NCBI GenBank assembly: GCA_003283765.1
Contig: QBVY01000003.1
Span: 12,183 to 76,182 of the forward strand
Reading direction: 5' to 3'
Source: SAR86 cluster bacterium AG-313-N18
GTDB lineage: Bacteria > Pseudomonadota > Gammaproteobacteria > Magnimaribacterales > D2472
Length of the DNA stretch: 64,000 bases
Part shown: piece by piece, positions 1-50,825 of the stretch
Numbering within the stretch: the stretch's first letter is position 1
Layout of the letters: every line of letters starts with the position of its first letter
Notes under the pieces: model-generated
Databases searched by the model: none
Told to the model about the DNA's origin: nothing
Seen by the model: only the letters and a program-made list of their open reading frames with translations
Made by a program: the position numbers and the translations under genes

Positions 1-231
1 TTGGAAGTTGCTGTAACTGGCTATGATGATGAGATTTTAGGAGAAAAAGTTGGAGTTGTAGCTGTGGTTGCAGAAGGTGAGACTATATCTTTAGACGAAA
101 TAATAGAGTTTCTAAGAGACCAACAGATTGCAAAGTATAAAATGCCAGAGGATTTAAGACTGATCGATGCTTTACCAAAAAACCCTGTTGGTAAAGTTTT
201 AAGACGAGAGTTAAAAGATTTATTTAACTAG
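1..231 (+). CDS. Acyl-CoA synthetase / AMP-dependent ligase, C-terminal fragment (5' end outside window)
   Basis: Only the last 76 aa are in the window. The tail ...KMPEDLRLIDALPKNPVGKVLRRELK matches the conserved C-terminal Lys region of adenylate-forming ligases. Confidence 0.65.
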   Translation: MEVAVTGYDDEILGEKVGVVAVVAEGETISLDEIIEFLRDQQIAKYKMPEDLRLIDALPKNPVGKVLRRELKDLFN

Positions 232-1463
232 GTAGTTCCAACAACAAAGCTTACAACTGTTGTAGCGCTTCCACCAATATTTAAAGTTGAAATATTTTTT
301 GCATTTTCAATTTGGTACTCACCTGCATGATCTGTACATTGTTTGTAGCAATCAAGCAGCATTCTCACACCCGTTGCGCCTACTGGATGTCCTAAGCCAA
401 TAAGTCCACCGCTTGCATTGATCGGTATTCTGCCGCCAATCTCTATTTCGCCTGATTCAATAGCTTTCCAGCTCTCTCCAGGTTTTGTAATGCCAAAATG
501 ATCAATTGCCATATATTCAGTTGATGTAAAGCAATCATGAGTCTCAATACCATCTATATCATCTACACCTTGCATCCTAGCTCTTGCAAATGCATCATCA
601 ATGGCTTTTTTTACATGTGGAAAAATGAAGTCTTTATTTTGACTAAAATCGATTTTTTCTTGATACGTTATGGGGCCTGTTTGATGGCCCCAGCCTTTGA
701 TATAAGGAATAGACTTAATATTTATTGATCTTGCTTTTGCATATTCTCTAGCTTTTTTTTCACTCGCTAAGAAAATTATAGCGGCGCCATCAGTTACTTG
801 ACCGCAATCCATCTTTCTGGTCCTACCCTCAATTACAGGATTAGAATGATCTGATCTTGTAAAAGTATCCGATTCAAAAGTCCATCCTCGCGTTTGTGAA
901 TTTGGATTTTTTTTAGCATTACCAAAATTTATCTCTGATATTTTTGAAAGATGATCTTCATTAATGCCATATCTTTTATCATATTCATTTGTCAGCTCAC
1001 TAAACATATGTGGCCAAGGGTACTGAACGCCCTGGCATTCAAAACCTGATCGCATTGCAGGGCCCCCAATATTTTGTGCTGCTTGCTCTCCTGGAACATT
1101 CCTCATTTGCTCAATGCCTAAGACTGCGGCTAGCTCATATCTACCCGATTCAATTTCAGCACAAGCAGCCAAAGTTGCAATACTGCCAGAAGCACATGCG
1201 GCCTCATGTCGTGAAGAGGGCAGCCCAAAAAAGTCAGGGTGCGAGGAAACAAAAAAACCACCTAAATGGCCTTGATTGCAAAATAATTCAGCGGTGAAAT
1301 TACCAACATGAGCAACATCAATATCTTTTGGCTCTAAATCAACAGAGGACAATCCTAGCGTAATTGTATTCTCGAATACATCCAAAAGGTCGAGTTCATT
1401 TCTGTGCCAGTTCTGAGCAAAGTCAGATTGATAGCCCCCTAGAATGTAGACGCGTTCTTGCAT
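228..1463 (-). CDS. SCP2-type (nonspecific lipid-transfer protein-like) thiolase
   Basis: 411 aa. Nucleophile Cys in HEAACASGS. The HDCF motif (GIETHDCFTS) is typical of SCP2-thiolases. GLGHPVGATGVRM His motif present. The stop overlaps the ligase stop by 4 nt. Confidence 0.75.
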   Translation of the reverse strand: MQERVYILGGYQSDFAQNWHRNELDLLDVFENTITLGLSSVDLEPKDIDVAHVGNFTAELFCNQGHLGGFFVSSHPDFFGLPSSRHEAACASGSIATLAACAEIESGRYELAAVLGIEQMRNVPGEQAAQNIGGPAMRSGFECQGVQYPWPHMFSELTNEYDKRYGINEDHLSKISEINFGNAKKNPNSQTRGWTFESDTFTRSDHSNPVIEGRTRKMDCGQVTDGAAIIFLASEKKAREYAKARSINIKSIPYIKGWGHQTGPITYQEKIDFSQNKDFIFPHVKKAIDDAFARARMQGVDDIDGIETHDCFTSTEYMAIDHFGITKPGESWKAIESGEIEIGGRIPINASGGLIGLGHPVGATGVRMLLDCYKQCTDHAGEYQIENAKNISTLNIGGSATTVVSFVVGTT

Positions 1464-1567
1464 TCATTAATTATATGCATGATTCTCTAACATTCAAAAG
1501 AAAAAACCCGAGTGAGAAATAATACAAAACTTGTAATAAACTTAAATTTAGATTTTTATTAGATCCG

Positions 1568-2470
1568 ATGCAAAATTATAAGTTAATTGATGAATTACGA
1601 TTGCCTGTAATCGTTGCTCCGATGTTCTTGGTTTCTGGACCAGATTTAGTAATCGCCAGCAGCAATGCAGGATTGATTGGCTCTTTCCCAGGACCAAATG
1701 CAAGAACTGCTGAGGAGCTTGAAGATTGGATGCATCAAATCAATAACGCTACTTCAAATCCTTGGGCATTTAATATGATCACCCATAAGACCTATGATAG
1801 GTTTTCAGAGGAATTGGACTTAATTAAAAAGTTCCAACCAAAAATTGTAATCACTGCCTTAGGCAGTCCTGAAAGAGTGATAGAGGCTGTGCATGGATAT
1901 GGAGGTAAGGTAATTGCAGATGTTAATAATATTAATTTTGCACGTCGTTGTGCAGAGATGGCTGTTGATGGCATGGCTCTTATTTGCCATGGAGCGGGAG
2001 GCCACACTGGGCACCTTTCCCCATTTTCATTTAGTGCTTATGTAAGAGAGTTCTTTGATGGTCTAATCGTTTTAGCGGGCTCAATTTCTACTGGGCAGCA
2101 TATTAAAGCAGCTCAATTATTAAGTGCAGATCTATGCTATATGGGTACAAGGTTCATTTCAGCCCAAGAAAGTAACGCAGTTGATGAATATAAATCTATG
2201 ATCATTAATTCAACATATGATGATTTGAGAATGACGAATCTATTCACTGGTGCCCAAGCTTATTATTTAAAAGATAGCATTATTAAAAATAATTTAGATC
2301 CAGATAACCTGGACTCTAATACAGAGGGTTTTAATGTTTCAGCCTCGCAGGACAAAATCAAAGCTTGGAAAGATATTTGGTCAGCCGGACAGGGCGTTGG
2401 TTTAATTAAAGATATAGAAAGCGTAGAATCTATAGTAGAAGAACTTGAATCTGAGTTCCTTCAGGGGTAG
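1568..2470 (+). CDS. Nitronate monooxygenase / 2-nitropropane dioxygenase family FMN oxidoreductase (enoyl-reductase-like)
   Basis: 300 aa. N-terminal LPVIVAPMFLVSGPDL and HGAGGHTGH motifs are typical of the NMO/FabK-like TIM-barrel family. Confidence 0.7.
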   Translation: MQNYKLIDELRLPVIVAPMFLVSGPDLVIASSNAGLIGSFPGPNARTAEELEDWMHQINNATSNPWAFNMITHKTYDRFSEELDLIKKFQPKIVITALGSPERVIEAVHGYGGKVIADVNNINFARRCAEMAVDGMALICHGAGGHTGHLSPFSFSAYVREFFDGLIVLAGSISTGQHIKAAQLLSADLCYMGTRFISAQESNAVDEYKSMIINSTYDDLRMTNLFTGAQAYYLKDSIIKNNLDPDNLDSNTEGFNVSASQDKIKAWKDIWSAGQGVGLIKDIESVESIVEELESEFLQG

Positions 2471-2473
2471 AGA

Positions 2474-3931
2474 ATGGAAATTAAAAAAACAAATACCATT
2501 AAATCATCACTAAAAACTCATGATCATCCGTATTTAAAGGATGCATGGATACCTAATTATGATGAATATGAGGTTAATGATTTAAAAGCACTTGGCGACA
2601 TTCCTGAGGACATAGAAGGGGCTTACTATAGAAATACTGAAAATCAAGTGCATGAACCTATTGGACGCTTTCATCCCTTTGATGGAGATGCAATGATTCA
2701 TTCAATTAACTTTGATAATGGAAAAGCTAACTATATTAATAAATTTGTAAAGACAGAAGGCTTTTTAGTCGAGCAAGAAATGGGAAAGTCAATGTGGGCT
2801 GGCTTGATGGAAAGAACAGGCTCATCAAAATTACCGGGCTGGGGAGCTCAAGGCGGTATCAAGGATTCATCTTCGACAGATATCATAGTTCATGCTGGCG
2901 AACCTCTTACAACCTTCTATCAATGCGGGGAAGGATATCAACTAAATCCTTATACACTTGATACAGATCGAAAAGCATCATGGGTTCCGGCTGGAGGCGT
3001 ATCAGCACATCCAAAAGTCGATCTTACGACAGGCGAGTTACTTTTTTTTAATTATTCAAAGCAATCTCCATATTTAAATTATGGTGTTGTTGATAAAAAT
3101 CAAAACTTAAAACATTTTGTTCCAATTGAACTTCCAGGACCAAGACTTCCTCATGACATGGCCTTTAGCAAAAACTATTCAATCATTAACGATCTTCCTC
3201 TTTTTTGGGATCAAGAGATGCTCAAGAAAGGAATTCATGCCACAAGATTACATGACTTGCCCTCAAGATTTGCAGTTTTTCCAAGATATGGGAATCCCGA
3301 AGACATTAAATGGTTTGAAGCCGATCCAACTTATGTCCTTCATTGGAACAATGCATATGAGGTAGGCGATGAATTAATTCTGGAGGGATACTTCCAAGAA
3401 CATCCTTGGCCAGAAAATTATGTCGATGCACCACCAGGACTTGAGCGTATGATGGCTTTTTTAGATTTTTCGCTTTTAAAACCAAGACTGCATAGATGGA
3501 AATTTAATTTAAAAACTGGAACAACAACTGAAGAAGACATTTGTAACGAAACAATTGAGTTTGGTGTCATTAATCAACACATTGCAGGTTTGGAGCACAG
3601 ATACACGTACAGCATGGTTCCAACTAAGGGGCACTTTACTTTTGATGGGATCACCAAACACGATCATCAAAAAAAATCTTTAACTAAATATATTTTTCCA
3701 GAACATATCTTTATTAGTGAAGTTAGCTTTGCACCTAAAACAAATGGAATTGATGAAGATGATGGATATTTAGTAACTATTAGTAATGATGTCAGAGAAA
3801 AGAGCTCATCGTGTTTATTGTTTGATGCAAAGAATATTGAGCAGGGGCCAGTTTGCGATATTCCATTACCACATCAAATTTGTTCTGGCACCCATGCAAC
3901 CTGGGCTCAAAGAAGTGACTTAAAATCGTAA
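2474..3931 (+). CDS. Carotenoid oxygenase family (carotenoid/apocarotenoid or stilbene cleavage dioxygenase, RPE65 superfamily)
   Basis: 485 aa. HPFDGDAMIHS motif present. All four iron-ligand His contexts are present: SAHPKVD, LPHDMAFS, YVLHWNNAYE, GTHATWA. Starts 3 nt after the previous stop. Confidence 0.85.
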   Translation: MEIKKTNTIKSSLKTHDHPYLKDAWIPNYDEYEVNDLKALGDIPEDIEGAYYRNTENQVHEPIGRFHPFDGDAMIHSINFDNGKANYINKFVKTEGFLVEQEMGKSMWAGLMERTGSSKLPGWGAQGGIKDSSSTDIIVHAGEPLTTFYQCGEGYQLNPYTLDTDRKASWVPAGGVSAHPKVDLTTGELLFFNYSKQSPYLNYGVVDKNQNLKHFVPIELPGPRLPHDMAFSKNYSIINDLPLFWDQEMLKKGIHATRLHDLPSRFAVFPRYGNPEDIKWFEADPTYVLHWNNAYEVGDELILEGYFQEHPWPENYVDAPPGLERMMAFLDFSLLKPRLHRWKFNLKTGTTTEEDICNETIEFGVINQHIAGLEHRYTYSMVPTKGHFTFDGITKHDHQKKSLTKYIFPEHIFISEVSFAPKTNGIDEDDGYLVTISNDVREKSSSCLLFDAKNIEQGPVCDIPLPHQICSGTHATWAQRSDLKS

Positions 3932-3935
3932 ATAT

Positions 3936-5135
3936 ATGAATCCTGTTTATATTGTTGATTCAATAAGAACGCCCAGAGCTCGAGCAAATCAAAAAGGCGG
4001 ACTCAATAAGCTCAATCCATATGAATTATTAGATTTTTTGTATAAGGATATTGAGTCTAAAAATTTCTTCAATTTAAAATCTATCGATGAAGTGATATTG
4101 GGTTGTGTCACTCAATTTGGGGAGCAAGCTGGCAATATTGCAAAAGCTTCTTCTTTATTTTCTGGCTATCCAGATTCAATTTCTGGCCTAACTATAAATA
4201 GGTTTTGTTCCTCAAGCTTGGATGCAATAAATTTCGCTTGTTTGAAAGTTCAATCTCAGCAAGCAAATAATGTGATTGCTGGTGGAGTGGAAATGATGTC
4301 CAGGGTACCAATGCTTTCTGATGAAGCGGCAATTTGGAATGACTTAGAGATCGCCGGAAGAGCAAAAATTTTTTTAATGGGCAGTGGAGCGGATCTGATT
4401 GCCAGTCTTTTTGATATTTCTAGAGAAGATGTAGATAAACAAGCTCTAAAATCTCAGCAAAAGGCATTAAATGCTCTAAAAAATAATTATTTTAAGTCAA
4501 TAATTCCAGTTACGAGTAAGAATAAATTAATTCACTGTGTTGAGGATGAATGCATTAGGCCCGATACAACCCTAGAAAGCTTGGCTTCATTAGAGCCTAG
4601 TTTTAAGAAGCTAGGAGAGCAGGGAGCAGACCAAGCTCAATTAAATCTTTTTCGTAACCTAAAAGAGATCTCTCATGTGCATACAGCAGGTAACTCTCCA
4701 GCAATGGCAGATGCTGCATCTATGACTCTTCTTTCAAATAAAAAAATCCAGGAAAATGGACATAGAGCTAGAGCAAAAATTATTTCTGTTGCCACTGTAA
4801 ATGATGACCCTTTATTAGTTTTATCAGGCTGCATCTTAGCTACGCAAAAAATACTTTCACAAAATAATTTAAAAGTATCTGATGTAGATTTATTTGAAAT
4901 ACATGAAGCTTTTGCCTCGACCATGATTCATTGTCAGAAAGAGTTAAAAATAGATGATGCAAAGCTAAACGTTAATGGTGGCTGTATAGCTCTCGGTCAT
5001 CCCATGGGAGCTACTGGCTCAATTATGATGTCAACACTAGTTGATGAGCTCGAAAGACGAGATCTTGCAACTGGAATTGTTGCAACCAGCGGTGCGGCTG
5101 GAGCTGGAACAGCTATTTTAATTGAGAGGATATAA
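3936..5135 (+). CDS. Thiolase-family acetyl-CoA acyltransferase paralog, atypical (C-terminal catalytic Cys replaced)
   Basis: 399 aa. NRFCSSSLDA nucleophile Cys, HEAFAS and GCIALGHPMGATG motifs present. The usual C-terminal C-x-G-G-G motif reads ATSGAAGAG (Ser instead of Cys). Confidence 0.8.
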   Translation: MNPVYIVDSIRTPRARANQKGGLNKLNPYELLDFLYKDIESKNFFNLKSIDEVILGCVTQFGEQAGNIAKASSLFSGYPDSISGLTINRFCSSSLDAINFACLKVQSQQANNVIAGGVEMMSRVPMLSDEAAIWNDLEIAGRAKIFLMGSGADLIASLFDISREDVDKQALKSQQKALNALKNNYFKSIIPVTSKNKLIHCVEDECIRPDTTLESLASLEPSFKKLGEQGADQAQLNLFRNLKEISHVHTAGNSPAMADAASMTLLSNKKIQENGHRARAKIISVATVNDDPLLVLSGCILATQKILSQNNLKVSDVDLFEIHEAFASTMIHCQKELKIDDAKLNVNGGCIALGHPMGATGSIMMSTLVDELERRDLATGIVATSGAAGAGTAILIERI

Positions 5136-5164
5136 AAAAAGCCCCACTAGAAAGTGAGGCTTTT
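5134..5164. terminator. Candidate bidirectional rho-independent terminator between convergent thiolase and TonB-dependent receptor genes
   Basis: AAAAAAAGCCCCACT-agaa-AGTGAGGCTTTT forms a GC-containing hairpin with one C/A mismatch. It is flanked by an A-run on one side and a T-run on the other. Confidence 0.45.
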
Positions 5165-5184
5165 AGAATATCTATTCAAATAGA

Positions 5185-7473
5185 TTAAAAATTATAATCT
5201 AACTTAATGGCTATATTTTTTGGTCTAGCATAAATGGCATCATAGGCTATTCCATCTAGCGCTCCACCTGACGCAAGTCTGACAAATGTTCTTGCGAGTG
5301 GAATAGTTCCACCAACAACTTTAATTCGTTCGTCAGTTAAGTTGTCACCAATCAACGACACTCTCCATTTACCATCTGAGCTAGTTAATCCAAGAACTAA
5401 TCCAACTTTTGAATAGCCGCCTTCTTTGATGTTCTTATCAAGGTTGGTCGTAATGAAGTACTCTGAAGAATAATCAACATTTAAGTTAGCATCAAAAACC
5501 CAGTTATTTGATAAAGTAGTATCATACGCAAAGCCAGCATTTGCTGTATCTTCAGGAGCAAGAATGACACTAGCACCAGATCTATCACAGTAAATACCAT
5601 TTGTTGGAGCCTCACCATATGCACACTGACTATTTTTCCAATCAGTAAATTCGTATGTCAAACTAGCCATTGATGCATAAAACTCTAAGTCATCTGTAAT
5701 AAGATACCTACCTTGCATTTCAAAACCATCCAACTCTGCTGCTGAAGCATTTCCCACTTTAAAGCCTAACACACCATCAAAAACACTGGTTTGCAGGTCT
5801 TCATACTCAGTTGTGAAATAGGTGAAATCAAATGAAGCTCTGTCTGATTTCATTTTATAACCCCATTCAATATTTGTAGCATTTTCTTCTTCAAACTCGA
5901 ACCCACCTTCACTTGAAACTAATGGTGTGCCTGGTATGGAATTACCTCGAATATCAAAACCACCGGCTTTAGATCCTTGTGTGTATGAAACATACATTTG
6001 GGAGTTATCAGATAGGTCATAGCTTAGTCGAACCATTGGATCAAATGAGTTTTCGCTTCTGCTGGCAGCAATGCTGTGAGGACCAACATTCAAAACTCCA
6101 GCCCATAAAGCAGGAAGTAGAGGAGAGCCATCAAGAGCTGTCCCTTTTCCATTTAAGGTTAAAGATCGACTTCCGTCTTTGTCTTCACTAGAGTATCTTG
6201 CTCCAAGCGTTAAGCTCCAATTACCCTCTAAATTAATATCGGCTTGACCAAAAACAGAATACATATCTGAAGATTGTGCATACAGCCTATCCCAATTTGT
6301 TCCTACTAATAAGGATACCGGAGGTCCTGCAAGCGCAAGGAATGATCCCAATGGAACATAATCAGTGACATCAACATCAGCTGTTTGGAAGTAAGCTCCA
6401 ATAATGTAGTCAACATCTTCTCCACCAGGAGAGGTATACCTAATTTCTTGTGACCATTGATCATACTTTTCTGTTTGGTTTGTACCATCTAGGATTTCTA
6501 AACCAACATAGTCAACATCTAACACTTCATATGAATCATATTCAACATGACCGGTAATTGAGGTTAGGGTTCCGCCACCGTCCATTGGATAGTTGGCAGT
6601 CAGCACAAAGTTATCCATTGTATTTTGGCTAAAAGTTTCCCCACTTGATCTAACCCAGTTTTCGGTTGTTTCAACTGCAATAGGTCCACGAAAAACAAGA
6701 CCATAGCCATCTTGTGGCGCTAGAGCTTCCATGGCGTAACCCACAGAATCAAAATCTGCTGTTTCAACTTTAAGATTGTAGTCAACATCTCCAGATGACC
6801 ATGCAAGTTGTCCCCTGATGTATGTCTCATCTCTTTGTGGCTCAAGTCTTTTCATGTTTGTGTTTGTAATCCAACCATCCATTTCTCTTGTAGAAACAGT
6901 TAATCTTCCAAGAACACTCTCTGATAGAGCACCAGATAACACTAAAAGTGATTGATCTTCACCATGTTCAGATTCATGAGATGTAGAAAACTTACCTTCA
7001 AATTCTTCAGTTGGTTTCGCTGAAGTAACACTTACAGCTCCACCAATTGCATTCTTGCCAAATAGGGTAGGCTGAGGACCTCGTAAAACTTCTACACGCT
7101 CCAAATCAACAAGCGGAGTTCTTGCTAATTGACTACGAGGGTAAACAATTCCATCAAAATTTATTGGAACAGATTGCTCAAAGCCTTTGTTAGCACCTGA
7201 TCTAACTCCACGAATAGAAATTGAAGTATCAATTTGCGTTTCAACCACCATAAAGTTCGGTACAGAAGCTGAAAGCGTTTGAAGGCTATCAATACTTCTT
7301 TCATCAATATCTTCCCCAGCAATGGCTGAGACTGAAATTGGAACATCTTGAAGGCTCTGCTCTCTAATTTGAGCTGTAACTACAACCTCTTCAAGAACTT
7401 GTGTAAAGGCCAAAGGCGCCCAAGTGAATAAAATGGCTGCAAAGACCACATTAAAAAAACGTTTACTAAACAT
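5185..7473 (-). CDS. TonB-dependent outer-membrane receptor
   Basis: 762 aa. Signal peptide, then a plug region (LEEVVVTAQIREQSLQDVPISVSAI, RVEVLRGPQPTLFGKNAIGG). Beta-barrel-like repeats follow and the C-terminus ends in aromatic ...KLDYNF. SD AAGGGG lies 5 nt upstream of the ATG. Confidence 0.85.
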   Translation of the reverse strand: MFSKRFFNVVFAAILFTWAPLAFTQVLEEVVVTAQIREQSLQDVPISVSAIAGEDIDERSIDSLQTLSASVPNFMVVETQIDTSISIRGVRSGANKGFEQSVPINFDGIVYPRSQLARTPLVDLERVEVLRGPQPTLFGKNAIGGAVSVTSAKPTEEFEGKFSTSHESEHGEDQSLLVLSGALSESVLGRLTVSTREMDGWITNTNMKRLEPQRDETYIRGQLAWSSGDVDYNLKVETADFDSVGYAMEALAPQDGYGLVFRGPIAVETTENWVRSSGETFSQNTMDNFVLTANYPMDGGGTLTSITGHVEYDSYEVLDVDYVGLEILDGTNQTEKYDQWSQEIRYTSPGGEDVDYIIGAYFQTADVDVTDYVPLGSFLALAGPPVSLLVGTNWDRLYAQSSDMYSVFGQADINLEGNWSLTLGARYSSEDKDGSRSLTLNGKGTALDGSPLLPALWAGVLNVGPHSIAASRSENSFDPMVRLSYDLSDNSQMYVSYTQGSKAGGFDIRGNSIPGTPLVSSEGGFEFEEENATNIEWGYKMKSDRASFDFTYFTTEYEDLQTSVFDGVLGFKVGNASAAELDGFEMQGRYLITDDLEFYASMASLTYEFTDWKNSQCAYGEAPTNGIYCDRSGASVILAPEDTANAGFAYDTTLSNNWVFDANLNVDYSSEYFITTNLDKNIKEGGYSKVGLVLGLTSSDGKWRVSLIGDNLTDERIKVVGGTIPLARTFVRLASGGALDGIAYDAIYARPKNIAIKLDYNF

Positions 7474-7590: not shown

Positions 7591-8622
7591 CTATTGTCTT
7601 ATAGCATCAACCATTACTTGAACTTTGTTGGGATCAATATCGGGGGTTATGCCATGACCAAGATTAAAAATAAATCCCGGATACTCTTTCATAATATTAC
7701 AAATTCTTTGAGTTGCTTCCCAGATTGATTCATCAGACTTCAGCAATACTTTAGGGTCAAGATTACCTTGTATGGCGTATTGATCTTTAAAATTTTTAGA
7801 TATGCTCTCAATGTCTTCTTGCCAATAAAGACTGACACATGTTATTTCCTTAAAAACTATGTCTTCAAGTTTTTTGTTTGGAGACTTTTCAAATAAGATG
7901 ATTGGAATATCGGCTGTTACTGGATCTTCTTTTAATAACTTACAAAGCATTCGAGTGTATTTTAAAGAAAATGTTTCCAAATTATCACCTGATAATAAAT
8001 CCGCCCATGAATCAAAAATTTGAATTGCATTCACGCCACTCATGACCTGCTGTCTTAAGTATTCAAAACATGCCTTGCTGAGAATTTCTAGAAAATTTTG
8101 AAGTTCCTTTGGATGTTCTCTCATAAAAGCATGAGTTTTATGGAAATCTTTTGAGCCTCCACCCTCAATTGAATATGCTGCTAAAGTCCATGGGCTGCCA
8201 CAAAAACCAATTAGAGGTGTATCTTGTGGTAATTGATTCTTAGTTTCCTCAACTGCTTTGAATACATAATTCAAATTATTTATATCAAATGGTAATAATT
8301 TTTGTATGTCTTGGGGAGATGATATCGGGTTGCTAAATTTTGGTCCTTCTCCTTCATGGAAAGCAAGGCCGAGATTTAATGCATCAGGAATTGTTAGGAT
8401 ATCGGAAAAAAGAATAGAAGCATCTAGACCAAACCTATCGATTGGCTGCAATGCGAGTTCAGCACATGTTCTAGGCTGTTTACACATATCTAAAAAATTA
8501 GTGTAATTTTTTCTAATTTTTTGATATTCCGGCAGGTATCTGCCTGCTTGTCTCATAAACCATACTGGTGGAATTGAATTTGCTTGGAGATTAAGCGCCT
8601 TTATGAATTTAGAATTTTTCAT
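7591..8622 (-). CDS. hemE: Uroporphyrinogen decarboxylase
   Basis: 343 aa. PVWFMRQAGRYLPEY signature and full-length HemE-like sequence. The start abuts the gltD stop (0-nt gap). Confidence 0.9.
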   Translation of the reverse strand: MKNSKFIKALNLQANSIPPVWFMRQAGRYLPEYQKIRKNYTNFLDMCKQPRTCAELALQPIDRFGLDASILFSDILTIPDALNLGLAFHEGEGPKFSNPISSPQDIQKLLPFDINNLNYVFKAVEETKNQLPQDTPLIGFCGSPWTLAAYSIEGGGSKDFHKTHAFMREHPKELQNFLEILSKACFEYLRQQVMSGVNAIQIFDSWADLLSGDNLETFSLKYTRMLCKLLKEDPVTADIPIILFEKSPNKKLEDIVFKEITCVSLYWQEDIESISKNFKDQYAIQGNLDPKVLLKSDESIWEATQRICNIMKEYPGFIFNLGHGITPDIDPNKVQVMVDAIRQ

Positions 8623-14808
<6,186 letters not shown>

Positions 14809-23119: not shown

Positions 23120-23817
23120 CTTTTAGTCTAAATAAGATTGCTCTTAAGCCGCACTCAAAAGTTTTAGATGTGGGTTGTGGAGAGGGACGTCATATATTTG
23201 GATCTTTGCATGAGTATACTAATGTCCATTGTGTTGGACTGGACCAGGATATTCCTTCATTAAATAAATGTATGGAAGGCTTGGAGTTTTTTAAAGAGCT
23301 CAATTCTGGCTCTACTATTTTTATGCAAGGTTCTGTATACAGATTACCATTTGACGATAATAGTTTTGATCTTGTTATTTGTTCAGAAGTGCTAGAGCAT
23401 CTTGATGATTACCATGCAGCATTAGATGAAATTTATAGAGTTTTAAAACCTAAAGGCAAATTTTTACCTAGTGTTCCATCGTATTGGCCTGAAAAAATTT
23501 GCTGGTCTCTTTCATCCAGTTATCAAAATATGCCAGGTGGTCACGTAAGAATTTTTAAAAAACGTCAAGTGATTAATGAGATTATGGATCATGGGTTCAC
23601 GTATGATTATGCTGAAAGGTTTCATGGTCTGCATAGCGCATATTGGTGGCTTCGATGTCTTTTTTGGAACACTCAAGATTCAAACTATTTTATAAAGATT
23701 TATAAAAAATTTCTTGAATATCAAATTCTTCACAGCCCAGCATGGTTGAACAATTTTGAAAAAATTCTAAATCCCATTTTTGGAAAAAGCATTGCATTTT
23801 ATTTCGAAAAAAAATGA
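23113..23817 (+). CDS. Class I SAM-dependent methyltransferase
   Basis: 234 aa with a GTG start that overlaps the GT4 stop (GTGTTAA). Motif I VLDVGCGEGRH. Motif post-II/III reads DLVICSEVLEHLDD...LKPKG. Confidence 0.8.
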   Translation: MLTFSLNKIALKPHSKVLDVGCGEGRHIFGSLHEYTNVHCVGLDQDIPSLNKCMEGLEFFKELNSGSTIFMQGSVYRLPFDDNSFDLVICSEVLEHLDDYHAALDEIYRVLKPKGKFLPSVPSYWPEKICWSLSSSYQNMPGGHVRIFKKRQVINEIMDHGFTYDYAERFHGLHSAYWWLRCLFWNTQDSNYFIKIYKKFLEYQILHSPAWLNNFEKILNPIFGKSIAFYFEKK

Positions 23818-24857
23818 AAAGGTTTCCAAATACATCTCAAATTGATCCCAGTTCTCTAGATGGGTTAAACCATTTAGGTGAGTTTTTAGATCACGTTCAG
23901 TTTCATTCCGGTGCTATTCCATCCAATCAAGATGGCTCACATGATCCGTGGGATCATCTTGAAGCTGTTATGGGTTTAACAACTTTAGGTTACAAGGATC
24001 AAGCGCTTAATGGTCTTAATTGGATGGCCGCTAATCAAAATGAAGATGGCAGTTGGTATGACCTATATCAAGATAACAAGCCATTAGAGCTCAACAAACA
24101 GACTAATTATTCTTCCTATATTGCAGTTGCTGTATGGCACTTTTATTTGCTTAATGATGATATTCATTTTCTCAAAAATTTTTGGGAGCCAGTTAAAAAA
24201 GGTGTTTTATTCTCTCTTTCTCTTCAGCATAGCAATGGAGCAATTGCATGGAATATAGATAAGTCTAAAAAAATAGATGAAGACTATCTTTTGACTGGGT
24301 GTAGCTCTATTGCAAAAAGTCTCGAGTGCGCGATAGCAATTTGCCAAGTTTTGGAACACAAGATCTTTGAATTAGAATGGAGAGATTCACATTCAAAATT
24401 ACTAGTTGCACTTGAAAATCCAGCAGAAATTTTTGATCTAAAGAAAGATCGCAGCAGGTTTTCAATGGACTGGTATTATCCTATTCTGGGTGGCATTAAT
24501 TCAAAACAAAGAATCGTCTCCCTAATAGAGATGATCAAAAATTCCTTTTGGATCAAAGACCTTGGAATTAAATGTGTTGCAGATGAGCCATGGGTAACTG
24601 TTGCAGAAACAAGTGAATGTTCTATTGCATTTAAAAAAATTGGAGAAGATAAGATTGCATCAGAACTCCTTCAAAATGCCATTGCTATAGTTGATTCGCA
24701 GGACATTCCTTATATGGGCTGGCAATTTCATGAAAATATTTATTGGCCTGAAGAAAACCCTTCATGGACTGCCGCAGCATGCATCCTCGCTGCTGATGCA
24801 AATAATAAACTCACCCCCGGTGCTGATTTATTTACCAAGCTTCAATTTAAGTCTTAG
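23814..24857 (+). CDS. Alpha/alpha-toroid protein resembling prenyltransferase / squalene-cyclase repeat proteins (function unknown)
   Basis: 347 aa. ATGA start/stop overlap with the methyltransferase. QW-like repeats: SNQDGSHDPWDHLEA, ANQNEDGSWYDLY, LQHSNGAIAW. Assignment is by motif pattern only. Confidence 0.45.
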   Translation: MKRFPNTSQIDPSSLDGLNHLGEFLDHVQFHSGAIPSNQDGSHDPWDHLEAVMGLTTLGYKDQALNGLNWMAANQNEDGSWYDLYQDNKPLELNKQTNYSSYIAVAVWHFYLLNDDIHFLKNFWEPVKKGVLFSLSLQHSNGAIAWNIDKSKKIDEDYLLTGCSSIAKSLECAIAICQVLEHKIFELEWRDSHSKLLVALENPAEIFDLKKDRSRFSMDWYYPILGGINSKQRIVSLIEMIKNSFWIKDLGIKCVADEPWVTVAETSECSIAFKKIGEDKIASELLQNAIAIVDSQDIPYMGWQFHENIYWPEENPSWTAAACILAADANNKLTPGADLFTKLQFKS

Positions 24858-40081: not shown

Positions 40082-41203
40082 ATGCAAGACTACAACACAG
40101 AACATCCTTTCGATCTCACTTTATCTGAAGAGCAGCAAATGACCTGGGACATGCTCAGAAAATTTGCTGAAACTGAGCTTCGCCCTCATGCAAGGCAAGC
40201 CGAGAGTGATGGCAGGCCTAGCGATGAATTGCTTGAGAAAATTAAATCTTTGGATCTTATTTCTCTTATTATCCCTGAAGCATATGGTGGCATGGGATTA
40301 GAACAAGATTCTGTTTCAAATGCTTTGGCACTTGAGGCACTCGCCTATGGAGATCTATCACTAGCTATGTCTGTTTCTGTTCCTTTGTTGGCTGCACAAA
40401 TTATTTCAGAGCATGGTAGTGAAGAACAGAAAGCAGAACTTTTACCAAATCTTGTTAATGGTTCAATCTTTCATGTCGGTCTCGGGATTAACAATGCATT
40501 GCTGGCGACTGATCCATATCAATCAAGTGTTATTGCAGATGAGAGTGGTGAAGAGATTATTCTTAATGGATCGAAAACAGGTGTTGCTTTTGCGGATGAA
40601 GCTAAAACTTTTTTAATTTCCGCATCCAATGAATCTGGCGAATGTAATCTATATTTCGTGAATAAAGATCAAGAGGGAGTCGAGCTTGAGCAAAAAGAAT
40701 TTATGGGCTTAAAGGGCGCGCCTTTATCACAGATTAATTTTTCTAATTGCAAAATTAATGCTTCACAAAAACTCGGTGGACACAATTACTCTATTAATTA
40801 TGAAGCGCTTGTAGACTCTTCTCGAATCGGCATGTCCGCTCTAGCGCTAGGAGTTTGCCAAGCAGTTCTAGATTATGTTGTTCCATATACCAATGAACGA
40901 GTCGCTTTTGATGAGCCTATTTCAAACCGACAGTCGGTAGCTTTTATGGTTGCTGATATGGCAATTGAAACTGAGGCCTTGAGATTGATGGTATATAAAT
41001 CCTCTGCCTTAAAGGATCTTGGCGAAGACTTTCATAAACAGGCATCACTTACATATCGGTTTGCTGCCCATCATGGCATGAAAATAGGAACTGATGGAGT
41101 TCAATTGCTTGGAGGCCATGGTTTTACTCATGAGCATCCTGTTGAACTTTGGTACAGAAATTTAAGAGCCATTGGCATATTTGAAGGGGGCGCAGGAGTC
41201 TAA
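40082..41203 (+). CDS. Acyl-CoA dehydrogenase family protein (short C-terminus)
   Basis: 373 aa with an ACAD fold pattern. It ends at ...YRNLRAIGIFEGGAGV, immediately after the position of the usual catalytic-Glu motif, so the last helix is missing. Confidence 0.8.
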   Translation: MQDYNTEHPFDLTLSEEQQMTWDMLRKFAETELRPHARQAESDGRPSDELLEKIKSLDLISLIIPEAYGGMGLEQDSVSNALALEALAYGDLSLAMSVSVPLLAAQIISEHGSEEQKAELLPNLVNGSIFHVGLGINNALLATDPYQSSVIADESGEEIILNGSKTGVAFADEAKTFLISASNESGECNLYFVNKDQEGVELEQKEFMGLKGAPLSQINFSNCKINASQKLGGHNYSINYEALVDSSRIGMSALALGVCQAVLDYVVPYTNERVAFDEPISNRQSVAFMVADMAIETEALRLMVYKSSALKDLGEDFHKQASLTYRFAAHHGMKIGTDGVQLLGGHGFTHEHPVELWYRNLRAIGIFEGGAGV

Positions 41204-41204
41204 A

Positions 41205-42404
41205 ATGATACATCCACTTTTACCAAATCAATTACAAAAAACTCAAGAGACCATGAGAATGGCCGCTGAGTTTATATTACGTCCTATTTCTAGAAAATAT
41301 GATAAAGCAGAGCATGAACCGCCTTTAGAAATGGAGCAGCTGAATCAAGCCGCTGCAGCGCAAAAAAAAGAAACTGGAATGGGTAATGATTCAGTTAAAT
41401 CAATGGATTTGGGCGGAAGAAATCTTTGGGCTGTCATTTCTTTAGAGCAAATGTGTTGGGGTGATGTCGGGCTATTTCTTGCGAGGCCAGGCACTGGATT
41501 AGGCAATGCTGCCATCATGGCGGTTGGCAACACAGACCAAAAGGCTTTATGGGGAAAAAGATGGGCCGCTATGGCAATAACAGAACCTGCAGCTGGTTCA
41601 GATTCAAAAAATATCTCAACAACCGCAGTCTTGGAAGGGGATGAATGGGTTTTAAATGGTGAAAAGATTTATGTCACTGATGGAGATCGATGTGATTGTG
41701 TTGTTGTCTGGGCAACCTTAAACAAAGATATGGGAAAAACAGCAATCAGATCCTTTATTGTAGAGAAAGGCACGCCAGGATTTACCGTTGCAAGGCTTGA
41801 AAAAAAATTAGGCATCAGAGCCTCTGATACTGCCACTTTAATTTTTGATAATTGCAGGATCCCTCGTGAAAATTTGCTTGGTGGCAAGGAAGAGATTGAG
41901 ACGGATATCAATGCAGCTAAAAAATCATTTGGTGGAGCCATGCAGACTTTTGATAATACTCGACCAATGGTTGCTGGAATGGCAATCGGTCTTGGCCAAG
42001 CTGCATTAGATATGACAAGAGCGTTATTGGCTGAAGAGGGTTATGAAGATAATTTTGGTGGATCTATGCACCAACAAACAGCCATTCAAAATGAATTAGA
42101 GATGCTTGAAGCTGAGCTAGAGGCTGCAAGATTGCTTGTTTATAAGTCGGCTTGGATGATGGATAACAAAATGCCAAATTCGAAGGAAGCATCCATGGGC
42201 AAGGCAAAAGCCGGCAGAATTGGGAATAGAATTTCTTTAAAATGTGTTGAAATATGTTCTATGCAGGGCTTTTCAGAGGATCATTTACTCGAAAAGTTCT
42301 CTCGCGATTCCAAAATTCTTGATATTTTCGAGGGTACTCAACAGATCCAGCAACTGATTGTTGCAAGGCAAGTTTTAGGCAAAAGCTCGTCACAGCTAAA
42401 ATAA
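41205..42404 (+). CDS. Acyl-CoA dehydrogenase family protein
   Basis: The ATG at 41205 lies 1 nt after the upstream stop, with AGGAG 7 nt upstream. The TTG at 41172 in the ORF track is less likely. AITEPAAGSD and LDIFEGTQQIQQLIVAR motifs present. Confidence 0.8.
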   Translation: MIHPLLPNQLQKTQETMRMAAEFILRPISRKYDKAEHEPPLEMEQLNQAAAAQKKETGMGNDSVKSMDLGGRNLWAVISLEQMCWGDVGLFLARPGTGLGNAAIMAVGNTDQKALWGKRWAAMAITEPAAGSDSKNISTTAVLEGDEWVLNGEKIYVTDGDRCDCVVVWATLNKDMGKTAIRSFIVEKGTPGFTVARLEKKLGIRASDTATLIFDNCRIPRENLLGGKEEIETDINAAKKSFGGAMQTFDNTRPMVAGMAIGLGQAALDMTRALLAEEGYEDNFGGSMHQQTAIQNELEMLEAELEAARLLVYKSAWMMDNKMPNSKEASMGKAKAGRIGNRISLKCVEICSMQGFSEDHLLEKFSRDSKILDIFEGTQQIQQLIVARQVLGKSSSQLK

Positions 42405-42532
42405 TTAGAATTTATCTTACTTATAAGTAAAAAATATAATAAAAATAGCAACCTTATTACCATTGCAATGCCTTTACCATTAGGTATATCATTGTTTTAC
42501 GAGTTCAAACAATCAACTTAAGGGGGAAGATT

Positions 42533-45412
42533 ATGAACAGATATTTCTATGCTTTTTTATTAGCATTTTCATTTAGTGCAGTACCAACAATAGCTCAAGA
42601 GGACACAGGTCGTGAGATTGAAGAAGTTGTAATTACTGCTTTAAGAAAAGAAACAAATCTACAAGATACTGCGATTACAATTACAGCGATCACAGGCGCT
42701 GATCTTGAGGTTAAACAAATTGAAAACTTTGAAGATCTTCAGTTTGCTGTTCCAACATTAGGCTTTCAAAAAGGAGCTTACTCAGGTGCTGGTATTACTC
42801 TAAGGGGTATCGGTAACTTTGCAGTTGGAAATTCTACCAGTGCAAGTATCGGTTACTTCTGGAATGGTCAAACCGCATCTGCTAGTGGGCTTTATGAGCA
42901 AGAATTTTTTGATGTTGAGCGTGTAGAGGTTTTGCGTGGACCACAGGGATCACTCTTTGGTGCTGGTACAACTGGTGGCTTGATTCAAATGATCACTAAA
43001 AGACCTGATGCTGAAGCAGGTGGCTACCTAAAAGCTGATGTTGCTGATTATGATTCATTGCGAATGGAAGGAGCGATTAACCTCCCTCTAACTGATAAAT
43101 TGAGATCAAGATTTGCATTTGCTTCACTTCAAAGAGAGGGTTTTGTAACTAACTCTCATACAGGCAATAAGCTTGATGATAGGAATACTCAAGGCGCTAG
43201 GATGTCTTTTGAGTATGATTATTCAGATGACACAACCATGACTTTGATCTATGAAACAACTCAAGCAGATGACAACAGACTAAGAGCTGCTAGACAATAC
43301 TGTAAGCAAGATACATTCTTTGGTTGTAGCCCATTTGAAAATGGCAATGATGCTGTATGGTCACCTGGAAGTTATGGTCATTGGGTCCCTTACATTCAGT
43401 TCCAGAACACAGGCTTAGACTATACGATTTACGAGAATAATCCTTCCTCTGATTTAAGAAGTGTTAATCTTGATTTCGAACCTACTCATGAGGCTACGCT
43501 TCAGAACACTGTATTTGAAATAAACAGCGCTCTTTCAGATACCATGAACATGGTCTTTACTTATTCATATCACACAAGAGAGTATGAAGATTTTGCTGAT
43601 TATGATCATTCTGTATCAGTGGTTCCATATGCTATGGGCCCCATTACATCTAATATTTTCTATGATACAACTAAAGGCAACATGGCTGGTGCAGGTCTAG
43701 GCATGAAAACTTATACAAGTGATCAGGCTATGGATAGATCTTTTAATGAATCTGAGTGGGAACAGTATGAACTAAGATTCTCATCTGACTATGATGGTTC
43801 TTTTAACTTCACTTTTGGTCTTTTCTCTTCTGCTAGTGATAGTGAAACCAATTACAACATCGGAACGCCATACATGAATTACTGGAGTGATGTTTCCACT
43901 GGACCAGTTGGTGCAATTTTCCCTGATGCAGCTCCATATGGAGGAACTCCATTCTGGCTGGGTTGGTTCCAGACTTTACCAGTTGCCTCTGCGCAAGCAA
44001 CTCAACTTGTCTTAGCAGGATTATTACCGCCAGCTCAGGCGCAAGGTTACACATTAAATCTGGCCAAAAATGGTGGTATTGCTAATGCCAACGCAAGTAT
44101 TGGACCAATGCATTTAGCTGAATGGCAGCAGTACTTCCATGTTGACAGTAACCTCAATAGAAGCAGCGAAGCTATATATGGTGAAATGTATTTTGATCTA
44201 AGTGATTATACAACTGTGACAGTTGGAGGTCGTTATACAGAGTTTGAAATTAATAGTAAGGCATTTAACTCTTTACTTGACCTACAAAACCAAGGTGCTG
44301 GCTACTACGGAAAAGTAAAACCAGCTCCAATACCTAGAAGTTATGCTGCAGAAGAATCAACTTATAAGCTCGGTATTGATCATCAGCTCAATGAAGATCA
44401 ACTTCTATATGCAACTTATTCAACTGGGTTCAAGCCTGGTGGATTTAACACCACTGATATCGAAGGTTTAGTTAATTTTGATTCAGAAGTTGCGAATGTA
44501 TTTGAGGTAGGTTTAAAAAGCACTCTCATGGAAGGAGCTCTTCAATTAAATGTATCTGCATACACCAATGATTATGAAGGCCTCCAGCTTTCACAAATTG
44601 TTAATCGTGCTTCCATTAACCAAAATGCTGATGTAACAATTGAGGGTATAGAAGCAGAATTTACATTGTTGTTATCTGATACCTTGATCATTGACGGTTT
44701 TGTATCTCATACAAGCACAGAAATTGAGGATTTCCAGTCTGTTGATCCATTGAATATTAATCAGGCTACCAAAAAACTTCCGCTTCCGGCTGGAGCGACA
44801 GGTTTCCTATCAGACTTTAAACCTTTGGCAGCAACTTGTAATCCATTGGTCTTTGTAGGACAGGCAGCGCCTTCTGCTAATTGTTCTTTAGGATTAGCCG
44901 CTTCTAATGCATTACTCGGAGCGCTGGTTTTATATGCGCCTACTGATGCTGGGTACGTATTTAAATCTTTTGGACCTTTGTGTACACAACCATTCTTTGG
45001 TTTAGATTCAACAACACTTCCATGCCCAATCACAGATGGAGTTGAAGCAGATTTATCAGGAAATTCTCTTCCTATGGCTGCAGAACTTAACTACAGACTT
45101 GGTGTTACTAAGTTTGTGGATACATCCGCTGGTTCATGGGCATTTAGAATGGATTATTCCTACAGAGATGATTATTACAGTACTGCATTTAATAGACCTC
45201 GAGGTCATATTGAAGATGTAAGTCTAATTGATTTATCTGTTAAATATACTCCTGTTTCTGAGGCTTGGTTTGTTGGAGCCTACGTAAGGAACATGACTGA
45301 TGAAGATCATATTTATGCATACTACTCAACGGATGTAACTGTGGGTGGTTTCCAAAATGGTGTTGCCATAGATCCAAAAATCTTTGGTATTAACTTTGGA
45401 ATGAATTTTTAA
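42533..45412 (+). CDS. TonB-dependent outer-membrane receptor (large)
   Basis: 959 aa. Signal peptide and plug (IEEVVITALRKETNLQDTAITITAI, RVEVLRGPQGSLFGAGTTGG). C-terminus ends ...INFGMNF. Strong SD AAGGGGGA upstream. Confidence 0.85.
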   Translation: MNRYFYAFLLAFSFSAVPTIAQEDTGREIEEVVITALRKETNLQDTAITITAITGADLEVKQIENFEDLQFAVPTLGFQKGAYSGAGITLRGIGNFAVGNSTSASIGYFWNGQTASASGLYEQEFFDVERVEVLRGPQGSLFGAGTTGGLIQMITKRPDAEAGGYLKADVADYDSLRMEGAINLPLTDKLRSRFAFASLQREGFVTNSHTGNKLDDRNTQGARMSFEYDYSDDTTMTLIYETTQADDNRLRAARQYCKQDTFFGCSPFENGNDAVWSPGSYGHWVPYIQFQNTGLDYTIYENNPSSDLRSVNLDFEPTHEATLQNTVFEINSALSDTMNMVFTYSYHTREYEDFADYDHSVSVVPYAMGPITSNIFYDTTKGNMAGAGLGMKTYTSDQAMDRSFNESEWEQYELRFSSDYDGSFNFTFGLFSSASDSETNYNIGTPYMNYWSDVSTGPVGAIFPDAAPYGGTPFWLGWFQTLPVASAQATQLVLAGLLPPAQAQGYTLNLAKNGGIANANASIGPMHLAEWQQYFHVDSNLNRSSEAIYGEMYFDLSDYTTVTVGGRYTEFEINSKAFNSLLDLQNQGAGYYGKVKPAPIPRSYAAEESTYKLGIDHQLNEDQLLYATYSTGFKPGGFNTTDIEGLVNFDSEVANVFEVGLKSTLMEGALQLNVSAYTNDYEGLQLSQIVNRASINQNADVTIEGIEAEFTLLLSDTLIIDGFVSHTSTEIEDFQSVDPLNINQATKKLPLPAGATGFLSDFKPLAATCNPLVFVGQAAPSANCSLGLAASNALLGALVLYAPTDAGYVFKSFGPLCTQPFFGLDSTTLPCPITDGVEADLSGNSLPMAAELNYRLGVTKFVDTSAGSWAFRMDYSYRDDYYSTAFNRPRGHIEDVSLIDLSVKYTPVSEAWFVGAYVRNMTDEDHIYAYYSTDVTVGGFQNGVAIDPKIFGINFGMNF

Positions 45413-45434
45413 TTCTTCATTTTAGATATAATAA

Positions 45435-45462
45435 AGCCCGGATTATTTCCGGGCTTTTTTTT
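45435..45462 (+). terminator. Rho-independent terminator after the TonB-dependent receptor
   Basis: AGCCCGGA-ttatt-TCCGGGCT is a perfect 8-bp GC-rich stem. It is followed by a run of 8 T. Confidence 0.75.
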
Positions 45463-45463
45463 G

Positions 45464-45781
45464 ATGAAAATTTTTACCAAACGATTTAATAGGATCCTTG
45501 CAAAACTCCAGGAGAGTTTTCTTGAAGAAAATCGTGAAAATAAAAAAATGCTTGATACGTATCTAAAATTTGTTGAAGGTTCTGTTACTGAGCGTGAATT
45601 AGAGTTAGCCAACTCTCAACTACAACAAATTCTTAAAAATCTTGGTTTAGGCATATTATTAATTTTGCCTTTTAGTCCAATTACTTTGCCATATATATTT
45701 TCAAAAGCTAAAGAGCTAAACATAGATTTAATACCAAATTGGTATAAGTCTTTAAGTAATGACGACGATCGTTTAGAATAA
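45464..45781 (+). CDS. Small hypothetical membrane-associated protein
   Basis: 105 aa from the ATG (TTG at 45461 is also possible). A predicted helical N-terminus is followed by a hydrophobic segment, LGLGILLILPFSPITLPYIF. No family is confidently recognised. Its start sits inside the terminator T-tract. Confidence 0.4.
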   Translation: MKIFTKRFNRILAKLQESFLEENRENKKMLDTYLKFVEGSVTERELELANSQLQQILKNLGLGILLILPFSPITLPYIFSKAKELNIDLIPNWYKSLSNDDDRLE

Positions 45782-45807
45782 CTCGTTACTAATTTTGGAG
45801 TATAAAA

Positions 45808-50824: not shown

Positions 50825-50825
50825 C

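Follow-up and report, generated by a model that had tools for sequence, protein, structure and literature searches.

A carotenoid-cleavage oxygenase of a SAR86 bacterium in a conserved gene module with a predicted catabolic role

The subject of this study is a carotenoid-cleavage oxygenase (CCO) encoded in a 64,000-nucleotide stretch of the SAR86 cluster bacterium AG-313-N18 (contig QBVY01000003.1, positions 12,183 to 76,182; hereafter the window), and its described relatives include both plant and bacterial enzymes. Plant CCD1, a carotenoid 9,10(9',10')-dioxygenase (structures 9m3e, 9m6z and 9luz), shares with it the seven-bladed propeller family PF03055, four histidine ligands and two of three second-sphere glutamates, but is only 30% identical, falls outside its clade and has a glutamate (in ALSE) where the window CCO has Gln150 and invariant motifs of its own. 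CCD1 is moreover a stand-alone enzyme that makes volatiles and signals, whereas the window CCO is encoded in a CoA-dependent, catabolic-type cluster with a receptor. The retinal-forming ACO of Synechocystis (Diox1; 2biw, K00464) belongs to the same superfamily and has the same iron site, but its gene context is different, its identity is only 26% (122 bits), and nothing points to 15,15' regiospecificity in the window CCO. LsdA, LSD4, NOV1 and NOV2 of sphingomonads are likewise CCO-family enzymes that serve to break down a compound from outside the cell, and they occur in some of the bacterial orders in which we also found relatives of the window CCO; they differ in that their Tyr101 and Lys134 are Met112 and Tyr149 in the window enzyme. 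SaCCO, from Sphingopyxis alaskensis RB2256, attacks apo-8'-carotenal at its open end and yields apo-10'- and apo-12'-carotenal, with no retinal formed (PMC5133782). Compared by described activity only, SaCCO is a proteobacterial CCO with the type of activity that a catabolic model needs, and Sphingopyxis genomes carry members of the window CCO family (loci L018, L021 and L036). Our analysis indicates that the window CCO is part of a conserved multi-gene module, whose general logic, uptake followed by oxidative C=C cleavage and breakdown of CoA esters, we consider catabolic with good probability.

Two described pathways combine comparable types of reaction. In the phenylacetate (paa) pathway, PaaK, PaaN and PaaJ are likewise involved in CoA ligation, oxidative opening, oxidation of a CoA-bound aldehyde and thiolysis; the module differs in lacking the PaaABCDE epoxidase and PaaG, in its cleavage by a CCO and, in SAR86, in the absence of an aldehyde dehydrogenase (ALDH) gene from the cluster. 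The pathway for steroid rings C and D (HIP) unites a ligase (FadD3), a FabK-like flavoprotein (IpdC) and a thiolase (FadA6) in one catabolic regulon, with IpdC acting on an acyl-CoA (PMC5380842), but the module has no IpdAB, EchA20 or FadE and uses another type of oxygenase, the likeness being one of logic only.

At the window locus, genes for a FabK/NMO-like FMN oxidoreductase (1568-2470, + strand, 300 aa; PF03060), the CCO (2474-3931, +, 485 aa; PF03055) and a thiolase-fold paralog (3936-5135, +, 399 aa) follow each other with spacers of 3 nt (2471-2473) and 4 nt (3932-3935), in agreement with the tight spacing over 1568-5135 given in the original prediction. An SCP2-type thiolase (228-1463, -, 411 aa) is encoded divergently across an intergenic region of 104 bp (1464-1567), presumably the site of both divergent promoters, in which there is one sigma-70-like match (minus strand 1497-1470, a consensus match only). 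The SCP2-thiolase gene converges in turn on the 3' end of an acyl-CoA ligase gene of the AMP-binding family (1-231, +), the two overlapping by 4 nt at their stop codons, as they also do on the Logan contig L004. The window includes the last 76 codons and the stop of this 561-aa ligase gene, with a C-terminus that reads ...PVGKVLRRELKDLFN (end of the translation ...PVGKVLRRELKDLF(N)); the gene is complete on L004, with unrelated genes beyond. On the other side, a 49-nt gap separates the thiolase paralog from a convergent gene for a TonB-dependent outer-membrane receptor (5185-7473, -, 762 aa) and houses a terminator-like hairpin (5137-5164, consensus match) with a 12-bp stem between A and T runs, a predicted terminator that could serve both directions. 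Profile scans, translation and motifs thus recovered every gene that had been named from the letters of the window, at the positions given, including the SCP2-type thiolase with its HDCF motif, the ligase and the convergent receptor as flanks. The description of the operon as beta-oxidation-like is true only in part, because the cluster has a ligase and thiolases but lacks genes for an acyl-CoA dehydrogenase, a hydratase and a hydroxyacyl-CoA dehydrogenase. SAR86 AG-447-M16 and SAR86E, whose oxygenases are 91% and 90% identical to that of the window, respectively, show synteny with it over the whole locus, and the G+C content of the window (33-41%) does not shift at the CCO cluster.

To place the locus among other bacteria, a pattern scan with one genome per species was made, which revealed at least 582 stretches with CCO relatives; the best 80 of these were taken with 10-kb flanks and searched by tblastn with the six SAR86 proteins, and neighbours were counted in those 46 loci whose flanks reached 8 kb or more on each side. 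CCO orthologs with the same gene set (52-61% identity) were found in Woeseia, Thiotrichales, Erythrobacteraceae, Sphingomonadaceae, Caulobacterales and Burkholderiales. All six families stand as one block in Erythrobacteraceae and Sphingomonadaceae (L014, L019, L024, L034, L043 and L049; partly L018 and L058), in the order receptor (minus strand), NMO-like reductase, CCO, ligase, SCP2-thiolase, thiolase, ALDH and lipocalin-like protein. Identities of these blocks to SAR86 are 38-45% for the receptor, 46-50% for the reductase, 53-55% for the CCO, 41-43% for the ligase, 56-58% for the SCP2-thiolase and 33-36% for the thiolase. Rearranged versions occur in Woeseia (L001), Thiotrichales (L009), Brevundimonas, Maricaulis, Parasphingorhabdus and Burkholderiaceae. 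The commonest core partner near the CCO was the SCP2-thiolase (27/46), followed by the thiolase paralog (21/46), the NMO-like reductase (18/46) and the ligase (14/46), the cluster orthologs being 45-66% (SCP2-thiolase), 44-57% (reductase) and 41-51% (ligase) identical to SAR86. At least one of these four partners was present in 33 loci, and three or more in 15. The same families thus recur beside CCO orthologs in distantly related genomes, as a co-conserved gene set would, and because this co-conservation extends across Alpha-, Beta- and Gammaproteobacteria, the genes probably form a functional unit. From these comparisons, we take the gene set to be a real, conserved and putatively catabolic module, beyond chance.

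The clusters of related bacteria contain additional genes. A two-domain HxlR regulator was found in 23 of the 46 loci and a DUF1295/steroid-reductase-like membrane protein in 21; other recurring neighbours encode SnoaL/LEH-type NTF2 proteins (some with a signal peptide), an MFS transporter, short-chain dehydrogenases (SDRs), a second ligase and acyl-CoA dehydrogenases. The 559-aa ALDH of related clusters passes the PaaN_2 model (588.6 against a cut-off of 578.75), and genes of this type are present in L086 (12849-14528, -), L009, L014, L073 and L079, with no other paa genes. In the phenylacetate pathway, the PaaN-type enzyme oxidises a CoA-bound semialdehyde. In L029, a classical ALDH gene lies directly upstream of the CCO gene, and an acyl-CoA dehydrogenase gene adjoins as well. 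Together with the co-conservation, these ALDHs beside the CCO in relatives bear out the proposed coupling of oxidative C=C cleavage to CoA activation and thiolysis. A search of the window for DUF1295, HxlR, PaaN-type ALDH, MFS, SnoaL/LEH and lipocalin genes found none of them; SAR86 has a minimal, streamlined six-gene version of the module. A sister CCO clade (36-41% identity) occurs in the same type of cluster, either alongside the first (L003, at 8001-10993; L047, L068, L072, L076 and L079) or alone (L086 and L091); the tandem arrangement suggests two cleavage specificities feeding one downstream pathway. In four Sphingorhabdus and Parasphingorhabdus loci (L040, L077, L078 and L085) a CCO ortholog was found without any of the partner genes, and in L040 its neighbours are dxs-HAD-dapD on one side and ruvAB on the other, a housekeeping setting by the first gene of isoprenoid synthesis.

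The CCO itself matches PF03055 (RPE65) with 354.2 bits (cut-off 27) over residues 28-478 of 485 and has no signal peptide. Its four iron-ligand histidines stand in canonical contexts, H179 (SAHPKVD), H227 (LPHDMAF), H290 (VLHWNNAYE) and H474 (GTHATWA), and align with the histidine ligands of CCD1, LSD and ACO (HMMER pairwise and MAFFT alignments). The second-sphere glutamates E362 and E416 are kept; the third position, a glutamate in CCD1 (ALSE), LSD (ALKE) and ACO, is Gln150 in the family-invariant motif FYQCGEGY, where Glu153, three residues further on, might stand in for it. PGPRLPHD and SGTHATWA are likewise invariant in the family. Arg224, in the former motif, was considered as a carboxylate-binding residue and dropped, since the ACO register puts it at -3 from a histidine ligand, probably facing away from the tunnel. 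No curated NCBIfam equivalog was reached by the CCO: the LSD model NF053778, its best NCBIfam match by score, gave 176.8 (cut-off 800), the NOV2 model NF053780 (lignostilbene dioxygenase) 171.7 (cut-off 650) and the model of 8'-apo-carotenoid 13,14-cleaving dioxygenase NF052295 165.5 (cut-off 675), all far under the thresholds. Among solved structures, plant CCD1 ('carotenoid 9,10-dioxygenase') is the closest, with 177 bits and 30% identity over the full length, compared with 125 bits and 25% for Pseudomonas LSD and 122 bits and 26% for Synechocystis ACO. A neighbour-joining tree, with the sequences of CCD1, one LSD and ACO rebuilt from pairwise alignments as the only outgroups, set the CCO family and its sister clade apart from all three. 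Judging from these placements, the window CCO belongs to an uncharacterised proteobacterial clade, outside every characterised clade compared.

In LSD, Phe59, Tyr101 and Lys134 bind the 4-hydroxyphenyl group of the substrate, and Tyr101 and Lys134 hydrogen-bond its 4-hydroxyl (PMC8191317). Phe59 is kept as F69 in the window CCO, but Tyr101 and Lys134 are replaced by Met112 and Tyr149, as the HMMER and MAFFT alignments agree, and both positions sit in an invariant motif of the family. A stilbenoid or other phenolic substrate is disfavoured because of this replacement, and a phenolic stilbene or phenylpropene would be an unlikely substrate of the enzyme. Of the three substrate types named in the original prediction, a polyene, a stilbenoid or an isoprenoid, the stilbenoid therefore loses ground, also by the scores of 172-177 that the CCO reaches with LSD-type models (cut-offs 650-800), and a polyene would be the simplest reading.

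The ligase matched generic models only, the best in NCBIfam being PRK06187 (long-chain-fatty-acid--CoA ligase; 286 bits, under the cut-off of 476). Among solved structures it comes nearest to aryl-acid adenylating enzymes, FadD13 and 4-coumarate-CoA ligases, a kinship that would be in keeping with a carboxylate in conjugation with an unsaturated system. The NMO-like protein scored 95.5 bits against PF03060 and 109 bits against the FabK equivalog TIGR03151 (cut-off 453), with the FabK enzymes 7l00 and 2z6i as closest solved structures; it is a member of the superfamily predicted to reduce a C=C bond in an enoyl or dienoyl thioester. The SCP2-thiolase exceeds the cut-off of NF004936 (631.7 bits against 375), also matches PF22691 and PF02803, and has a complete catalytic set, Cys90, the HDCF motif at 309-312 with the acid/base cysteine, and GHP at 358; its closest solved structures are the trypanosomatid SCP2-thiolases 4bi9 and 3zbg. 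SCPx/SCP2-type thiolases thiolyse 2-methyl-branched 3-oxoacyl-CoAs of isoprenoid origin.

The thiolase paralog (433 bits against PRK08242, under the cut-off of 514) does not have the canonical thiolase tetrad. It retains the nucleophile Cys91 and GHP354, whereas HEAF replaces NEAF and the acid/base cysteine of the CxG motif is lost, with SGA in its place (…VATSGAAGAG…); M. tuberculosis FadA Rv0859, its closest structure, itself has NEAF and LCIGGG. The CxG cysteine is also lost in cluster members from Woeseia, Thiotrichales and Alphaproteobacteria (Ser, Thr, His or Leu in the loop; FMEAF) and is present in the Zhongshania and betaproteobacterial types; the top 120 matches to the window protein are all from SAR86 (85-98% identity). 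Because the acid/base cysteine is absent and NEAF has become HEAF, ordinary thiolysis by this protein is doubtful and it is unlikely to be an ordinary thiolase; it may instead pair with the SCP2-thiolase or carry out a variant reaction. The proposal of thiolysis in the module is thus weakened for the paralog and stands for the SCP2-thiolase, with its complete active site. With its acid/base cysteine gone, the paralog poses an enzymological question of its own.

Starting from gene content, motifs, co-conservation and the position of the CCO outside the characterised clades, which are read directly, we infer a substrate class, an order of steps, a receptor specificity and roles for the accessory enzymes as follows. 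The TonB-dependent receptor would bring an exogenous conjugated unsaturated compound across the outer membrane, to which relatives would add an MFS transporter and periplasmic NTF2-like proteins for uptake. In the cytoplasm, the CCO would use O2 to split one C=C bond into two carbonyl fragments, and the aldehyde end would be oxidised by an ALDH, encoded within the cluster in relatives and presumably elsewhere in SAR86. The acyl-CoA ligase would then activate the carboxylate, unless the substrate is already a CoA ester; ligation might precede or follow cleavage, since relatives have a PaaN-type dehydrogenase, which hints at aldehydes bound to CoA. The FabK-like flavoprotein could reduce the conjugated double bonds of the polyenoyl-CoA, and the SCP2-type thiolase could shorten the chain and release acetyl or propionyl units, with the Cys-less thiolase paralog acting as its partner or as an atypical enzyme of acyl transfer or cleavage. 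Oxidative cleavage would also get past the 3-methyl branches that block beta-oxidation of isoprenoids. As substrate, we tentatively propose a carotenoid-derived or isoprenoid polyene, such as an apocarotenoid or apocarotenoic acid, and hold this to be close to an even call. Such a pathway would be in keeping with the many TonB receptors and the lipid catabolism for which SAR86 is known (PMC3358033).

Several observations weigh against this model, some of them concerning the cohesion of the module and its link to the receptor. The partner genes were all absent from 12 of the 46 well-flanked CCO loci. The receptor has the Plug and barrel domains (PF07715 and PF00593), a signal peptide (N-terminus MFSKRFFNVVFAAILFTWAPLAFTQVLEEVVVTA) and a TonB box (EEVVVTA), and reached no specific NCBIfam subfamily at cut-off (best TIGR01783, 112.5 against 223.5). 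Although it adjoins the operon convergently, as originally described, it forms a separate transcription unit behind the predicted bidirectional terminator with its 12-bp stem. In eight Erythrobacteraceae and Sphingomonadaceae loci, receptor homologs (38-45% identity) directly abut the NMO-CCO genes. A reciprocal search took six close homologs of the receptor from outside SAR86 (61-68% identity) and placed only two of them inside a CCO cluster or no more than 5 kb from one: one inside the complete cluster of L086 (P0234), with HxlR, ligase, receptor, lipocalin, PaaN-type ALDH, thiolase, SCP2-thiolase, NMO-like and CCO genes, and one 4.6 kb from the CCO cluster of L091 (P0227). The other four adjoin ferritin/Bfd, a sulfatase or Sox genes. 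Because only two of these six are near a CCO cluster, we no longer count the receptor as belonging to the operon and regard its linkage as likely without being obligatory; it is probably the importer of the pathway substrate, a candidate role favoured by the alphaproteobacterial loci and loosened by the reciprocal search.

The same observations bear on a different explanation, in which there is no dedicated pathway and the locus is an adjacency of independent housekeeping paralogs of lipid metabolism, next to a transporter for iron or another nutrient. The separate receptor unit, the ferritin/Bfd neighbours of some close receptor homologs, the CCO loci devoid of partners and the JGI label of these receptors ('iron complex outer membrane receptor') would fit this explanation. 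It is at odds, however, with operon gaps of 3 and 4 nt, with the occurrence of the same six families, at 36-57% identity, in one block in Alphaproteobacteria and with the two of six reciprocal receptor matches that do lead to CCO clusters. Furthermore, the best Fur-box match of the receptor gene (13/19) was at the level of shuffled background, and an Rfam scan of its upstream region gave no credible match, with no cobalamin or other riboswitch; neither these scans nor the subfamily scores mark it as a siderophore, haem or B12 receptor. We consider mere adjacency very improbable. Receptors 65% identical to the SAR86 one were also seen in L088 and L089 (P0232) and L087 (P0233), beside genes for an acetyltransferase, a DUF155 protein and an MFS transporter, followed in L088 and L089 by two ferritin genes and a Bfd gene; no CCO gene lies within 10 kb in these three loci.

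Further points on this side of the balance concern the substrate. No member of the CCO clade has a known substrate, and CCD1, at 30% identity, is too distant to settle the substrate class. The aryl-acid and coumarate kin of the ligase, together with the PaaN-like ALDH, are also compatible with an aromatic alkenoic acid. In SAR86E, a 484-aa secreted protein of the tannase/feruloyl-esterase family (PF07519, 299 bits; L007, 12666-14120, -) is encoded between the thiolase paralog and the receptor, downstream of the receptor and in the same direction; this gene, which neither the window nor L006 has, is a hint of ester or aromatic substrates. Neighbours of the DUF1295, NTF2 and SDR types are also usual in the catabolism of steroids or terpenoids. 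Since the SAR86 cluster has no hydratase, dehydrogenases or ALDH, the pathway must borrow enzymes, and a search of the literature for these genes in combination, or for a bacterial cluster of carotenoid catabolism, turned up no description of such a pathway.

The ligase kin, the PaaN_2-type ALDH of relatives and the SAR86E esterase gene, as well as the rank of the LSD model as best NCBIfam match by score (176.8 bits), would be consistent with catabolism of an aromatic alkene, that is, a stilbenoid, a phenylpropenoid or an ester-bound hydroxycinnamate-like acid, with the CCO acting like a lignostilbene or isoeugenol oxygenase and the products entering a paa-like CoA pathway. In Sphingobium, a TonB receptor is known to work together with an MFS transporter on lignin-derived biaryls, which may also be counted in its favour. 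The LSD-type scores are nevertheless far under their cut-offs of 800 and 650, the phenol-binding Tyr101/Lys134 pair is Met/Tyr within an invariant family motif, no ring-cleavage or demethylase genes were found in the clusters examined, and SAR86 in the open ocean would presumably have little access to lignin-derived compounds; an aromatic substrate appears decidedly unlikely to us.

Another terpenoid lipid, such as a sterol with an unsaturated side chain, the prenyl chain of a quinone, a phytol derivative or an oxidised polyunsaturated lipid, would give the CCO the task of removing or opening an alkene that blocks beta-oxidation. An SCP2-type thiolase with a FabK/IpdC-like reductase is typical of steroid and terpenoid pathways (PMC5380842), the DUF1295 (steroid 5-alpha-reductase-like), SnoaL/KSI-like NTF2, SDR and lipocalin genes of relatives are equally so, and breakdown of phytol and of the side chains of steroids has been predicted for SAR86 (bioRxiv 10.1101/2024.03.17.584874). 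On the other hand, the substrates of all characterised CCOs are conjugated or aryl-activated alkenes, as is generally known (review PMC5133782), and the clusters examined contained no KstD, KshA or Hsa-type steroid genes. We regard this explanation as unlikely.

The source of retinal in SAR86, a group that is among the commonest bacteria of the surface ocean, has been in question since 2011; proteorhodopsin is present in the group, a crt/blh pathway is not (PMC3358033, PMC3569297). The locus studied here holds an oxygenase that was earlier suggested as a possible source, and the original prediction named retinal salvage as an alternative purpose of the cluster. The receptor would then import carotenoids or apocarotenals, the CCO would cut them at the 15,15' position to give retinal for proteorhodopsin, and the CoA genes would dispose of the other fragment. 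Besides the missing crt/blh genes, this explanation can draw on the intact fold and iron site of the CCO and on automatic annotation, by which 'apo-carotenal 15,15'-oxygenases' were reported within SAR86 only for Magnimaribacteraceae and some RedeBAC7D11 genomes (bioRxiv 10.1101/2024.03.17.584874). According to the same preprint, however, the oxygenase is also present in lineages without proteorhodopsin and is reported for only two of the four families, despite a near-universal rhodopsin in the order. The CCO is closer to CCD1 than to ACO (26% identity), and the module is kept with catabolic genes in Woeseia, Sphingomonadales, Caulobacterales and Burkholderiales and occurs widely among bacterial lineages that are not known for rhodopsins. 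Nor is a rhodopsin gene found nearby: all 51 open reading frames (ORFs) of at least 150 aa in the window were scanned (Pfam or NCBIfam), 50 of them matched a family (the exception is 23814-24857), and none is a rhodopsin, blh or crt gene, which agrees with the earlier remark that rhodopsin and blh are missing here and extends it to crt. Salvage as the purpose of the cluster thus finds little favour, and we judge it quite improbable, although retinal is possible as a by-product of CCO cleavage. The conserved catabolic context would either move the retinal question elsewhere or reduce retinal to such a by-product.

The SAR86 oxygenase gene is already known, as an annotation, from the 2024 preprint. 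Within the searchable literature, three points are new: that the gene belongs to a conserved multi-gene module, that its CCO clade is a distinct one, which has Gln150 and lacks the phenol-binding pair of LSD, and that the thiolase paralog is Cys-less; the module is built from known families working in a recognisable way. Taken together, the proposals above would make it the first genetically defined bacterial pathway for exogenous carotenoid-derived polyenes, fed by a TonB receptor, in which the CCO cleaves a polyenoic acid (possibly as its CoA ester), the FabK-like reductase, SCP2-thiolase and Cys-less thiolase partner finish the breakdown, and retinal or a precursor is possibly also released in rhodopsin-bearing SAR86. 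This combination, with each of its parts, is unlikely. If true, the pathway would be found in more than 500 genomes, including one of the most abundant ocean bacteria, and would explain the source of the chromophore in rhodopsin-bearing SAR86. A carotenoid-derived substrate would in itself provide a genetic handle on the microbial turnover of carotenoid breakdown products in seawater, and the module would also define a new functional CCO clade. Among the relatives that can be cultured are Zhongshania antarctica DSM 25701, Brevundimonas staleyi, Hirschia maritima and Qipengyuania.

Elsewhere in the window, hemE, gltD, gltB and other housekeeping genes lie beyond the receptor gene. In a second lipid-type cluster (40082-47001, +), genes for two acyl-CoA dehydrogenases, a TonB-dependent receptor of 959 aa and a canonical thiolase follow one another, and the pairing of a receptor with CoA-pathway genes therefore recurs in this genome. 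A pair of dxs and polyprenyl synthase (ispA-like) genes (48956-51695, -) is followed by an AcrB-type RND pump with its membrane-fusion protein (51959-55968, -). Two overlapping ORFs at 56059-57424 (-), in an otherwise housekeeping region, carry phage-type replication domains, one lambda P-like (33 bits) and one a DnaT DNA-binding domain (108 bits).

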